From a virus (taxonomy: Duplodnaviria > Heunggongvirae > Uroviricota > Caudoviricetes), in the IMG/VR virus record IMGVR_UViG_2639762844_000001, positions 1-19,285 of that record: DNA of 19,285 bases. One strand, 5' to 3'. A model generated the notes under the pieces. That model was given only the letters and a program-made list of their open reading frames with translations. It was not told the origin of the DNA and did not search any database. Position numbers and translations under genes: made by a program. Shown here one piece after another: positions 15,844-19,285 of this stretch (the stretch's first letter is position 1; every line of letters starts with the position of its first letter).

Positions 15844-16767
15844 ATGCATCGTATAGACACGAAAACCGCGCAGAAGGATAAGTTCGGCGCGGGTAAGAAC
15901 GGTTTTACCCGTGGTAACCCCCAGACTGGCACACCTGCCACCGATCTGGATGATGACTACTTTGATATGTTGCAGGAGGAGCTTTGCAGCGTGGTGGAGG
16001 CATCCGGTGCCAGCCTGGAGAAGGGGCGGCACGATCAGTTGCTTACCGCACTTCGCGCGCTGCTGTTAAGCCGCAAGAATCCGTTTGGCGATATCAAATC
16101 GGATGGCACTGTGCAAACGGCTCTCGAAAACCTTGGTTTGGGAGAAGCCACATTTGGCGCTCAAAATTGCGCTGTATTTGATAATGCAGGCGTCAGCACC
16201 TGGAATGTTCCTGACATAGTGAAAAAGGGCCGACGCGTCAGGGTGAAGGTTATCGGCGGTGGCGGGTCTGGCGGTTACCCGTCGATAAGCTCAACGAACG
16301 CTGCCGGTGGCGGCGGCGGTGGCGGCGGTGGTGTGAGCGAGTCCGTCATTGACTTAACAGGTATTGACACCGTCACAATCACTGTAGGCAGTGGTGGAAA
16401 AGGTCAAAATACGTCAGCAAGAAACGGAAATCCTGGTGGCACCAGTAGTTTTGGCACATATCTCTCGGCAACAGGCGGATATGGTGGAGGTCAGATATCC
16501 GGAGGAGTGGGGGGAGAAGGTGTGGGGGGGCAGATAAATACGTCTCTTGGCCCAGGCTCTCCTGGTGCATCAATGATAGCAGGCACTGATTCGGCTGTCG
16601 GAGGTAGTGGCGGTGGTCCTGGCGGGCATGGACAGGTTTTAGATTCGGCGGGGAATGTTGGCAGTAATGCAAAAGGTCCTGGCGGTGGTGGCGCTGGGTT
16701 GGCAACGAAAAAGACTGGCGGAGTTACTGGTGCTGGTCATAGCGGGATTGTAATTATTTATTGGTGA
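15844..16767 (+). CDS. Tail fibre protein with conserved N-terminal anchor and glycine-rich C-terminal region, 307 aa
   Basis: N-terminus [40 protein letters not shown]... resembles side tail fibre N-domains; the C-terminal half is Gly-rich (G9 run encoded by a GGN repeat near 16305-16332). Confidence 0.7.
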
Positions 16768-16777
16768 GGTATAAATT

Positions 16778-16945
16778 ATGTGGGCACGAATTGAAAACAA
16801 CGTGGTAATGGAGTTAACTGATATAGACCCAACGGGTAGATATCATGACTCGTTAATCTGGGTTGAATGCCCTCCTGACACTCAGCGTGGCTATATATAC
16901 AATAGCGGCGAATTTACGCCTCCACCGGAGGTGGCAGCCAGTTGA
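16778..16945 (+). CDS. Small ORF (55 aa) downstream of the tail fibre; possible tail fibre assembly or accessory protein, or remnant
   Basis: ATG 11 nt after the fibre stop; phage-like GC content. Below the 60-aa cutoff of the ORF track; identity not recognised. Confidence 0.35.
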   Translation: MWARIENNVVMELTDIDPTGRYHDSLIWVECPPDTQRGYIYNSGEFTPPPEVAAS

Positions 16946-17258
16946 TATCGAAGGCATTCAGAATGTTATGCCACGTTAAAAATTCTGCAGATTCATCACA
17001 TTATTCAGTCATTCTTCAAAGTAAATGGCTAATTACGACAATGTTAAATTTCAGCTTTGAAGTGCCATTGGCTATCTTTCTTGCATATTCATCAGTAAGT
17101 AGCTTCAATAGACTGCCTTCACATTCTGGAAGGCATATTTTGCTTTGGTCATCTTTCTGAATTTCCAGACACCTGACTCGATAGTGTCGAGATACTATCT
17201 TTACTCGTGAGAGTTAGGTTGGACCAGATTGCTTTATCGAAACTAAAGGATTGAGACA

Positions 17259-17297
17259 AGTGTCATTCTTTTTTAAGTCTTTTACCTGAATGACACT
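17259..17297. repeat. Perfect 10-bp inverted repeat (AGTGTCATTC / GAATGACACT) with 19-nt T-rich spacer, 50-90 nt downstream of the minus-strand cargo gene
   Basis: Read directly; may be a terminator or a binding site at the 3' side of the AT-rich gene. Confidence 0.4.
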
Positions 17298-17346
17298 AAA
17301 TCTTTAATACTACTGATAATTTCCTTTAGATATTCTTGTCGAGTGG

Positions 17347-17934
17347 TTATCTAAATGTTTTGATATACTTGAGATAATATCTGTGTCTGAAGTTGAACAA
17401 TACATCTCCCGGGTAAATATTACCATTGCTCTCAACGAGTCCTTTGTTTTCTTTCGAGGTGAAAGATATCGTTCTTTTTATTTTTAACTCATTAAATTTC
17501 ATTACATCCATGTAACTTCCATCTCTATCACACATTTTAAAAACAACTCTATCAAGGCCATGTGATGATATAAAAGATTGAAGTCTTTTTATTCTTCTAT
17601 TCCATTTATCCATGGCTTCTGCCCTTGAGTTATAATGCATAAAGTATATTTTTACTCCATCCACAAATGCAACGGGGAAATTATGCTCTGTATTAATGAA
17701 ATCGCTTTCAACAATGTCTCTTGATAAAAAATGCTCCAAATTAATACACATTTCAACAAAATCAGATGCTGTGATGTACAGGCCGATAAAGGGAGTATTA
17801 TATTCAAGTCCTATATTTTTATATAGTCTATAGCCCCAGCAGTTATTGGATACAATAGCGAAAGGACGGGTTATTAAAATTTTGTCCAGAAAGTCAAATA
17901 ATCCAGTTTTGTGCAATATCTTATCTACCAACAT
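17347..17934 (-). CDS. AT-rich integrase-proximal cargo gene, 195-aa soluble protein of unknown function; tentative resemblance to DUF1919 proteins of polysaccharide loci
   Basis: About 33 percent GC inside a roughly 50-55 percent GC prophage; SD AAGGA 7 nt before the ATG; co-oriented with intS 193 bp downstream of it, in the slot that holds gtrABS in K-12 KplE1. The motif SNNCWGY...GLEYNTPFIGLY matches my recollection of the DUF1919 hallmark; not verified. Confidence 0.65.
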   Translation of the reverse strand: MLVDKILHKTGLFDFLDKILITRPFAIVSNNCWGYRLYKNIGLEYNTPFIGLYITASDFVEMCINLEHFLSRDIVESDFINTEHNFPVAFVDGVKIYFMHYNSRAEAMDKWNRRIKRLQSFISSHGLDRVVFKMCDRDGSYMDVMKFNELKIKRTISFTSKENKGLVESNGNIYPGDVLFNFRHRYYLKYIKTFR

Positions 17935-18127
17935 GTCATAATCCTTATGTTGTTTTATAGTGTATAATGTGAGTTTGTTATTTTTTAAATTGCAATTAAA
18001 TATTAGATAAATTTAATTGTCGTACATATAGAATATTATATGAATAAACCCAAAAAAACAACCAACCTAAAGGCTTTACTCTCGCCATATTATGTGAGTT
18101 GGATAATTGTACGGCGATATAGGTGGA

Positions 18128-19285
18128 TCACACCACCTTTTCATCGATCCAATCCGCCCACCATTGCATCATTTCTCTGCGCTTATCGAGATACTGAGCA
18201 TGGTTGTAAATCCCGCGCACAGATCCGCCGTTGGCATGTGCCAGTTGCATTTCAATGGCGTCTGCAGGCCATTCGTGCTCGTTCATAATCGTGCTGAATT
18301 CATGCCTGAATCCGTGACCGCTTTCCAGACCCTCATAGCCGATTTGTTTGATCACAAGTAGCACCGCGTTCTCGCAGATTGGCTTTTTCTTATCGTTGCG
18401 CCCGGCAAAAACAAACTCTGATACTGGTTTGGTGATAGAGCTTAGCGTAGTGAGAAGTTCAACTACCTGGTCTGACATAGGAACCACATGAATTTTGCGA
18501 CCCTTCATCACACTGGCGTCGATGGTGATAATCCTGTTTTCAAAATCGACGTTCTTCCATAGCATGGAACGAAGCTCTTTCGTTCTTAGGGCTGTGTAGC
18601 GTAAAACTTTTGTCGCAATGAGCGATACGATACTTCCTGAAAATGTTGCAAGTGCTTTGTTGAATGCCGGGATCTGGTCTGCAGGTAAAAACGGGAAGTT
18701 CTTCTTGCGGTATCCTTTCATGGCGTCTGCAAGGTCAGGTGCCGGGTTATATTTAGCCCTTCCGGTGACAATAGCGTAACGGAAAACCTCGCCGCATCTT
18801 CTGCGGGCTTTGTTGGCTCGCTCCATTGCACCGCGATCTTCAAATCTGCGGATTACTTCCAGCAGTTGCATCGGCTCAATATCCTGAATTTCAAGGCTGC
18901 CGATGATGGGTAAAATGTCGTCATCAAACATTTTTGCAAGTTCAGTCGCATACCCTACTGACCATACTTGCTTCTTGTGATCGTACCATTCCTTGTAAAT
19001 CGCACTAAAGGAATTGTTGTTAGACGAAGCCTTTTTCGCCTTTACCGGATCGATGCCAACCGAGATATCTTTCCTCGCAGTCCATGCTTTACCCCTTGCC
19101 TCCTGCAAAGTCATAAGCGGATATTTTCCGACGGTCAGGATTTTCTCCTTACCGCCAATCTTGTAGCGAAGCTGCCATACCTTTTTCCCGGATACAGGCA
19201 CATAAAGGTACAGACCATTACCATCGAGAAGGCGGTATGGTTTTTCTTTCGGCTTTGCTGCTTCAATCTGCTTAACGGTGAGCAT
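18128..19285 (-). CDS. intS: P4-type tyrosine integrase of the argW prophage (IntS-like), 385 aa
   Basis: Near-identical to K-12 IntS as recalled (MLTVKQIEAAKPKEKPYRLLDGNGLYLYVPVSGKKVWQLRYKI...); catalytic-domain residues (R...HxxR...Y) present; the start codon is the last base of the window, so promoter, att site and argW are outside. Confidence 0.95.
   Translation of the reverse strand: MLTVKQIEAAKPKEKPYRLLDGNGLYLYVPVSGKKVWQLRYKIGGKEKILTVGKYPLMTLQEARGKAWTARKDISVGIDPVKAKKASSNNNSFSAIYKEWYDHKKQVWSVGYATELAKMFDDDILPIIGSLEIQDIEPMQLLEVIRRFEDRGAMERANKARRRCGEVFRYAIVTGRAKYNPAPDLADAMKGYRKKNFPFLPADQIPAFNKALATFSGSIVSLIATKVLRYTALRTKELRSMLWKNVDFENRIITIDASVMKGRKIHVVPMSDQVVELLTTLSSITKPVSEFVFAGRNDKKKPICENAVLLVIKQIGYEGLESGHGFRHEFSTIMNEHEWPADAIEMQLAHANGGSVRGIYNHAQYLDKRREMMQWWADWIDEKVV

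Follow-up and report, generated by a model that had tools for sequence, protein, structure and literature searches.

The window analysed here, a stretch of 19,285 nucleotides (nt) from the virus record IMGVR_UViG_2639762844_000001 (Caudoviricetes), comprises by gene content and Pfam matches the late region and the right end of an SfV/CPS-53-like prophage. It contains a tail fibre gene followed by a small open reading frame (ORF) of 55 amino acids (aa). Our analysis makes it probable that this region constitutes a two-gene receptor-recognition cassette of an SfV/e14-like prophage with a Mu-type baseplate, in which a receptor-binding tip of the Pam3 type is paired with a helper carrying the domain of the Pam3 chaperone gp25, and that this cassette has been frozen at a crossover site. 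The following features were delimited (window coordinates, strand, basis in brackets).

15844 to 16767, plus strand: tail fibre gene, a continuous ORF of 307 aa (ORF list; full-length homologues P0015-P0030; AlphaFold2 model with a mean predicted local distance difference test score, pLDDT, of 83.8).
15844 to 16120, plus strand: N-terminal baseplate-anchor module, approximately residues 1-92 (common to e14 StfP, SfV orf21 and CPS-53 YfdL-type fibres).
16121 to 16148, no strand assigned: single relic crossover site of a Din-family (Pin/Gin/Cin/Hin) invertase, CTCTCGAAAACC-TT-GGTTTGGGAGAA(GC) (homology breakpoints; match to the e14 repeat).
16149 to 16764, plus strand: predicted receptor-binding tip, a β-sandwich resembling tumour necrosis factor (TNF-like) plus a glycine-rich lattice, residues 103-307 (Pfam, profile match to Pam3, AlphaFold2, Foldseek).
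16305 to 16333, plus strand: GGN array, 2.4 copies of CGGTGGCGGCGG, encoding Gly155-Gly163 (Tandem Repeats Finder; deletions in relatives; protein variants).
16763 to 16769, plus strand: Shine-Dalgarno-like GGTGAGG, which overlaps the fibre stop codon and lies 8 nt 5′ of the ATG of the small ORF (read from the sequence).
16778 to 16945, plus strand: 55-aa gene, putative 'mini-chaperone' (conserved clusters, synteny, ratio of nonsynonymous to synonymous substitution rates, dN/dS, matches to 7ypx_a, AlphaFold2).
16946 to 16950, no strand assigned: distal end of the transferred cassette (similarity to P2-like cassettes decays past the stop codon; AT-rich cargo starts).

A sequence-only reading of this region had placed the two ORFs at 15844-16767 (307 aa) and 16778-16945 (55 aa), and the ORF list confirms both. 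The fibre is chimeric, with a Gly_rich_2 tip on an anchor of the SfV/e14 type. The first 305 nt of its gene match 1,853 of 5,426 complete E. coli genomes at 94-99% nt identity (e14 ycfK/stfP, CPS-53) as well as the phages SfV, SfI, SfII and SfIV, which bears out the conserved N-terminal anchor proposed by that reading; the distal fibre and the small ORF are present in only about 10 of the 5,426. The anchor module also yielded PHROG tail-fibre N-terminal matches, helices are predicted at residues 37-96, and Foldseek matched it to the Mu baseplate chain 9ki1_j. Glycine accounts for 31% of residues 103-307 versus 11% of residues 1-102. In RefSeq, the 307-aa ORF is split by PGAP into an stfP pseudogene 'missing C-terminus' and a 174-aa 'glycine-rich domain-containing protein' (L001 18001-18924), a split which is an annotation artefact.

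The distal part of the fibre had been described as a short, glycine-rich half. This part does not represent a reduced fibre; it is a complete known receptor-binding domain according to Pfam, the profile match to Pam3 and Foldseek. Residues 115-307 match the Pfam family PF21722 (Gly_rich_2) over profile positions 3-225 of 226 (E 2.4e-10; 41.3 bits versus a cut-off of 24.3 bits), and a fibre profile of 65 sequences (A4) matches the Pam3 fibre gp24 (7YFW/7YPX) with an E-value of 1e-8, profile positions 100-313 being aligned to chain positions 55-273 (7yfw_a/7ypx_A). The AlphaFold2 model has a pLDDT above 90 for most of residues 110-307. In the Foldseek ranking for the fibre, the Pam3 fibre comes first (E 1e-9, probability 1.0), followed by tail-tip chains of mycobacteriophage Bxb1 and then by the TNF-like plus glycine-rich (TG) domains of ALK/LTK. 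The predicted tip fold is a β-sandwich followed by a lattice of extended glycine-rich hairpins, and the fibre is a further member of a known family. A literature search for PF21722 or Gly_rich_2 by name found no papers. The Pam3 fibre gp24 itself combines a helical anchor with a TNF-like sandwich and a lattice built of six hairpins rich in glycine, in which the central loops L1 and L6 bear GGGGxGG motifs and variable tips are proposed to bind the receptor (PMC9608196). Since a Pam3-like fibre of a Klebsiella phage recognises lipopolysaccharide, with host-range mutations lying within its glycine-rich domain (PMC12671077), lipopolysaccharide or another surface structure would most likely be the receptor here as well, which is a reasonable guess by analogy.

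The relic crossover site at 16121-16148 sits exactly at the junction of anchor and tip and encodes ...LENLGLGE.... At this site, the similarity to e14 stfP and SfV orf21 stops and a similarity of 95.8% to the cassettes of two P2-like prophages (L002 and L004) starts; the corresponding BLAST match ends at query position 800, which is position 16949 of the window. In our own reading, the site has the two-half-site shape of Hin/Gin/Cin/Pin sites, with matches at 9 of 12 dyad positions, and agrees with hixL at 19 of 26 positions. In addition, TTGGTTTGGGAGAAGC in the window is identical at 15 of 16 positions to TTGGTTTGGGAGAAGG, the inverted repeat of the e14 P segment that was defined by experiment (PMC12529663). 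Searches of the 19.3-kb window for the core and e14-repeat patterns, in which up to 3 mismatches were allowed, gave this one match and no second crossover site, and in the inverted-repeat search no inverted repeat involved the 16121-16148 site; a second site or an invertase within the window was rejected on these two kinds of search. According to the ORF list and the annotation of the identical locus, the window harbors neither an invertase gene nor an alternative tip and helper on the opposite strand. The earlier statement that invertase gene and inverted crossover sites are absent was thus right with respect to the invertase and the site pair and overlooked the one relic site. As the window has one site and no invertase, inversion is impossible here and cannot drive variation, in agreement with that reading, and the relic site explains where the tip was exchanged.

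The same in-frame 'LGLGE' junction is used in e14, SfV and P2-like fibres, and complete invertible segments with the same or a related cassette were found at four loci (L002, L004, L012 and L017). In the P2-like prophages L002 and L004, the cassette forms the C-terminus of a 560-aa fibre of the P2 H type, and is followed downstream by a Caudo_TAP gene in convergent orientation, an alternative fibre tip resembling gp53, an inverted partner site of 28 nt and an invertase of the resolvase family. L017, which shares the backbone of the window, combines an identical anchor with a 56%-identical Gly_rich_2 tip and a 56-aa ORF ('MWARIEE...'), after which an inverted Tfa, an alternative tip and an invertase follow. 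At the same intS-yfdC site, locus L010 (726-2534; MKIL01000020) has no invertase; its Gly_rich_2 fibre and 53-aa helper ORF are accompanied by a Caudo_TAP gene and a gp53-like tip fragment, both inverted. This locus looks as if an invertible segment were partway through its decay to the state of the window. A cassette with 81% nt identity, nine glycines and a 55-aa ORF is also present, in silent orientation, in the cultured P2-like Yersinia phage vB_YpM_MLG42. In this plaque-forming phage of Y. pestis (PP599993; L021 3498-4302), the cassette is a silent inverted arm beside the active H/G genes, and no invertase gene is annotated between the cassette and the sheath gene. Tip and small ORF are best described as one cassette, and an old site of DNA inversion is where it was joined to the fibre base common in E. 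coli/Shigella. By comparison of the sequences, the window would be a frozen half-segment. Such mosaicism at invertase sites is classical, and the locus is in this respect an ordinary phage mosaic which involves no new principle.

For the 55-aa ORF, no match was obtained in Pfam, PHROG or NCBIfam. When its profile was compared with 177,635 PDB sequences, the best match was 7ypx_a, the Pam3 chaperone gp25, at residues 7-59 (E 0.16). The AlphaFold2 model of the small ORF (pLDDT 89) contains five strands (2-6, 9-14, 27-30, 40-42 and 45-47), and 7ypx_a was again the sole credible PDB match in Foldseek (probability 1.00, TMq 0.74, root-mean-square deviation 2.8 Å). By sequence and by structure, the best PDB match of the small ORF is the chaperone which partners the protein that the fibre itself matches best in the PDB, and the chaperone identity rests on this agreement of methods together with synteny. 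In Pam3, gp25 is required for soluble trimeric gp24 and binds it via residues 1-55, a β-sandwich which grips the flank of the TNF-like/glycine-rich part, while residues 64-162 form a helical trimerisation domain (PMC9608196). This C-terminal α-helical domain is missing here, as the ORF stops at residue 55, at the interdomain linker of gp25; the small ORF is a domain homologue of gp25 and not a full member. An exhaustive profile search returned 710 representative relatives, in which the domain occupies the N-terminus of proteins 46-215 aa long (median 129 aa among the top 149). Some two-domain relatives also sit behind Gly_rich_2 fibres, and matches in BFVD include proteins labelled 'phage tail assembly chaperone', some of them just 60 aa long. 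The N-terminal 50-residue domain is often fused to Pfam DUF4376 (representatives P0163, P0166, P0176 and P0195), which suggests that phage fibre chaperones may use DUF4376 as a module at their C-terminus. Within this modular family of chaperones, the small ORF is a form with a single domain, and this is the modest novelty of the locus.

The genomic context and the conservation of the small ORF agree with a function in the service of the fibre. In the window, the gap between the fibre gene and the small ORF measures 10 nt, and in every context examined the small ORF lies directly 3′ of a Gly_rich_2 fibre. These contexts comprise backbones of the SfV/e14 type (window, L016 and L017), P2-like backbones (L002, L004, L012 and L021), an unrelated myovirus-type baseplate (L008 and L009) and a variant at the CPS-53 site (L010); a helper gene directly 3′ of the fibre was recorded in L002, L008-L013, L016-L018, L020 and L021. 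Homologues of the 55-aa ORF form 14 clusters with a core of 50-55 aa, the N-terminal 35 residues being nearly invariant and the tail variable. All of the E. coli clade is 50-56 aa long, and about five tail backbones have an ORF of this size behind a Gly_rich_2 fibre. Pairwise dN/dS values range from 0.10 to 0.39, with dS saturated between distant pairs while dN is about 0.19; judged from these substitution patterns, the small ORF is under purifying selection. The gene is unannotated in E. coli genomes and likewise in the cultured Yersinia phage vB_YpM_MLG42 (L021 4135-4302).

These data bear on the view of the sequence-only reading that the 55-aa ORF is the remainder of a tail fibre assembly gene cut short by the AT-rich cargo. 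The counterpart in the P2-like prophages ends with its own stop after 52 codons in cargo-free surroundings, so the cargo did not cut the ORF of the window short, and the 50-56-aa family and the purifying selection contradict the truncation as well; as a candidate, truncation was rejected after alignment with the P2-like cassettes and the family survey. What stands of this view is that the ORF corresponds to a part of an assembly gene, namely the N-terminal domain of a two-domain chaperone of the Pam3 gp25 type; both the cause and the proposed tfaS/yfdK family were wrong. Kinship with tfaS, yfdK or SfV orf22 found no support in a Pfam match, and hhalign, applied to the small-ORF alignment (A2) and an alignment of 8 Caudo_TAP/Tfa proteins, gave a probability of 0.25%, i.e. 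no kinship. A conventional Tfa remnant was rejected on the zero Pfam, PHROG and NCBIfam matches together with this negative profile-profile comparison.

Within the tip, the nine consecutive GGN-encoded glycines which had been noticed near 16305-16332 were confirmed at 16306-16332 (GGT GGC GGC GGC GGT GGC GGC GGT GGT; residues 155-163). Tandem Repeats Finder reports 16305-16333 as a 12-nt unit in 2.4 copies and perfect register, and also as a period-9 array. In the alignment of hidden Markov models (HMMs) with Pam3, GGGGSGG, 10 residues and G9 of the window face GGGGAGG-NSNTGNSKAS-GGGGGAG, i.e. loop L1. The run has a pLDDT of 92-98 in the AlphaFold2 model, which argues for structure and against a linker, and since it lines up with the L1 motif of Pam3, the nine glycines are predicted to be the return strand of the first glycine hairpin in the lattice core and would be structural instead of a floppy linker. 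This place in the lattice is derived from the HMM alignment to Pam3 together with pLDDT and DSSP. Among the 18 closest clusters listed (P0015-P0032, i.e. 17 beyond the window's own, 83-88% identical), all have exactly nine glycines, and more distant relatives have five to nine at the same place, with eight, six or five in other subfamilies. The comparison across relatives indicates that the run is not a chance feature. ORFs on the minus strand within the glycine-rich region (e.g. 16379-16705) were discarded as by-products of the GGN/NCC composition.

The length of the repeat was compared among isolates, and the expectation that it is prone to length variation was borne out by near-identical E. 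coli prophages with nine, six and five glycines, which arise through deletions of 9 and 12 nt. Among the members listed of the protein cluster at 90% identity, nine glycines are encoded on about 225 contigs; two forms with five glycines account for about 12 contigs and one form with six glycines for a single contig. The complete genome CP062871 (L003) has lost exactly one 12-nt unit and encodes five glycines; over 3.5 kb, the 12-nt deletion is all that distinguishes the loci L015 and L016 from the window, L003 shows the same deletion on a haplotype with five other single-nucleotide polymorphisms (SNPs), and L014 has a 9-nt deletion on a third haplotype. Otherwise, these three short-allele haplotypes differ by at most 5 SNPs in 3.5 kb. 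As a 9-Gly counterpart exists on the background of every short allele, the simplest reading is that there were probably three independent in-frame contractions. Three contractions in an array of 27 nt are many, given no more than 5 substitutions in the flanking 3.5 kb. All length changes are contractions, and all are multiples of 3 and hence in frame. In the prophage of L003 (CP062871; 3107-3691 and 5981-6678), ymfQ, the homologue of the baseplate protein gp48, is also interrupted by a stop codon, and an IS1 insertion separates the DUF1919 gene from intS; this prophage is degenerating. Altogether, the array is slippage-prone and its variants are tolerated, and the support for adaptive variation is weak.

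From these observations, the following mode of action can be proposed. The fibre would be a short trimer in which residues 1 to about 92 anchor it on the baseplate, the relic site encodes a linker and residues from about 103 to 307 form the tip, the non-glycine loop tips of the lattice presumably contacting the host receptor. Fibre and helper probably share one late transcript, from which both are translated. The helper may bind 1:1 to the flank of the nascent TNF-like/glycine-rich tip, where it would shield, template and stabilise the lattice. The fibre's own SfV-type N-terminal helices would then drive its trimerisation and attach it to the Mu-type baseplate, upon which the helper could leave. 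Recombination at the crossover site would carry the cassette, as a unit of tip and mini-chaperone, from one tail to another, unrelated one (SfV/e14-like, P2-like and others). In relatives, the cassette appears as one arm of a complete invertible segment, of which the other arm and the invertase would be gone here, and with the switch lost, specificity would be fixed. Change would then arise by replacement of the cassette at the crossover site and rarely by contraction of the glycine run: replication slippage in the 12-nt tandem repeat may occasionally drop 9 or 12 nt in frame and yield 6- or 5-Gly alleles, which would still fit the fold because other subfamilies have five to eight glycines at this place.

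Several points weigh against the proposed pairing of a Pam3-type tip with a gp25-domain helper. The AlphaFold2 model of the fibre is a monomer, and its whole-protein template modelling scores (TM-scores) to Pam3 are just 0.47-0.57, which are low because the N-terminal parts differ. The PDB matches of the small ORF are individually weak (E 0.16 and 0.075) and the ORF is short; it lacks the trimerisation domain, whereas the helical domain of Pam3 is proposed to organise assembly. Furthermore, in the cultured, plaque-forming phage MLG42 the cassette lies in silent orientation, and one 5-Gly carrier (L003) is a decaying prophage, so that short alleles may be neutral damage.

Three other explanations were considered for the same region. 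The small ORF could be the stump of a conventional assembly gene of the tfaS/yfdK/SfV-orf22 type which was cut by the AT-rich cargo, in which case the fibre may lack a chaperone. Its position is that of tfa in SfV and e14, it ends within 5 nt of the cargo boundary, and many relatives of its domain are longer (median 129 aa), but the same ORF with its own stop at 52 aa is found in cargo-free P2-like prophages, a size of 50-56 aa is kept in about five backbones with dN/dS of 0.1-0.4 at saturated dS, and there are zero Caudo_TAP matches and an hhalign probability of 0.25% against Tfa proteins, which together leave this explanation very improbable. We give just as little credence to the assumption that the fibre is a dead mosaic of an stfP pseudogene and an unrelated glycine-rich ORF, as in RefSeq, with the small ORF as a spurious frame. 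The PGAP annotation, with its stfP pseudogene 'missing C-terminus' and the 55-aa ORF left unannotated, and the rarity of the cassette (about 10 of 5,426 genomes) speak in its favour; yet the frame is continuous across the junction, the 'LGLGE' junction recurs in e14, SfV and P2-like fibres, the adjoining tail genes are all intact, the full-length protein occurs on more than 200 contigs, and the small ORF combines strong purifying selection with a confident fold.

The remaining explanation concerns the GGN array, which might act as a contingency locus: frequent slippage would resize the first hairpin, shift the residues of its tip and tune or switch receptor specificity, thereby replacing the lost inversion switch. 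This is compatible with the 12-nt tandem repeat in perfect register, the probably three independent in-frame contractions between haplotypes at most 5 SNPs apart in 3.5 kb, the location of the run in loop L1 adjoining the 10-residue tip, and the host-range mutations in a related fibre's glycine-rich domain (PMC12671077). However, the 18 closest clusters listed keep nine glycines, which points to selection for one length, and among the members listed, short alleles occur on about 13 contigs versus about 225. The changes seen are all contractions, one of the carriers (L003) is decaying, the array of about 2 copies is far below classical contingency repeats, and frameshifts never occur, hence there is no on/off switching. 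We consider a contingency function unlikely, slightly less so than the two explanations above. The preferred reading, a frozen cassette of Pam3-type tip and gp25-domain helper, can tentatively be extended: the 50-56-aa proteins might constitute a distinct minimal class of chaperones, in which a β-sandwich of about 50 residues folds a glycine lattice without a trimerisation module, and the GGN array in L1 might provide the frozen fibre with residual tip variation. We regard this extension as possible yet doubtful.

Besides the fibre gene, the window contains the Mu-type baseplate genes gp46, gp47/Baseplate_J and gp48/YmfQ, an AT-rich cargo gene and the IntS integrase. The tail genes around the fibre are all intact in the annotation of the identical locus: the fibre region is 100% identical to a prophage at the tRNA-Arg adjoining yfdC in E. 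coli BEC1-S17-ESBL-07 and in five more complete genomes. Two features of the right end are given for context only.

17347 to 17934, minus strand: DUF1919 gene in the AT-rich cargo (Pfam PF08942, E 3.5e-33).
18128 to 19285, minus strand: IntS-type integrase (Pfam; annotation of the identical locus).

The GC content falls to 31-34% from about position 17000, and the AT-rich cargo (31-34% GC) extends over 16946-18127, with the DUF1919 gene at the spot where SfV-family phages carry the gtrABC genes for O-antigen modification. Of 5,426 complete E. coli genomes, only the same 7 have this gene, and a search of phage-database proteins gave two weak matches only (26-28% identity), both from uncultured gut phages. 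The cargo may be a moron which modifies surface polysaccharides. Neither the fibre nor the small ORF nor the DUF1919 protein had a PADLOC match, and a role of the three in defence systems was rejected on these zero matches. About 170 nt 3′ of the small ORF, within the AT-rich stretch, a terminator-like hairpin TGCCTTCACATTCTGGAAGGCA with a T-rich tail was noted at 17114-17143 on the plus strand, which may end the late tail operon.

In practical terms, the locus, a tidy example of known phage mosaicism, offers a compact and self-contained receptor-binding cassette of about 0.8 kb with a natural in-frame splice point. This 'LGLGE' site already works on tails of the SfV/e14 type and of the P2 type and could be useful to retarget phages or tailocins. 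Recognition of the pair of Pam3-type tip and mini-chaperone also corrects the current RefSeq entries, in which the fibre appears as a pseudogene and an orphan protein and the 55-aa gene is omitted. If a single-domain helper indeed suffices, it would be smaller than any fibre chaperone known and could serve as a simple model for the folding of glycine lattices, which are found also in the human ALK/LTK receptors.

Among known systems, the closest is Pam3 gp24/gp25 (7YFW, 7YPX; PMC9608196), which shares with the window a short fibre of about 300 aa with a helical anchor, a TNF-like domain and a GGGGxGG lattice, and a chaperone gene immediately 3′ of the fibre, the 55-aa protein matching the gp25 β-sandwich (7-59) by sequence and predicted fold. 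Unlike in Pam3, the anchor in the window is of the unrelated SfV/e14/Mu type, the host is enterobacterial, the identity is just about 20-27%, and the helper is devoid of the helical trimerisation domain of gp25 (64-162). In its order of constant part, crossover site, variable part and helper gene, the region resembles the segments of Din invertases (Mu G, P1 C and e14 P; PMC12529663); in contrast to these, it lacks an invertase and an alternative arm and has just one site, and its helper is not a Caudo_TAP protein. It shares the state of a frozen half-segment with SfV. The packing of extended glycine strands into a lattice that presents variable ligand or receptor loops is common to gp38 of T2/S16-type phages, of which S16 gp38 has been named a structural relative of Pam3 gp24 (PMC9608196), and to the TG domains of ALK/LTK. 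Yet gp38 is a separate monomeric tip protein on gp37 and ALK/LTK are eukaryotic receptors, whose Foldseek matches are weak (E 2e-3 and worse, TM-score about 0.25). Finally, the small ORF resembles the Caudo_TAP proteins (λ Tfa, Mu U, P2 G, E. coli TfaS/YfdK/TfaP/TfaE and SfV orf22) in its place directly after the fibre and in its presumed role in fibre maturation, whereas it differs from this family (PF02413) in having no detectable sequence kinship and only a third of the size.

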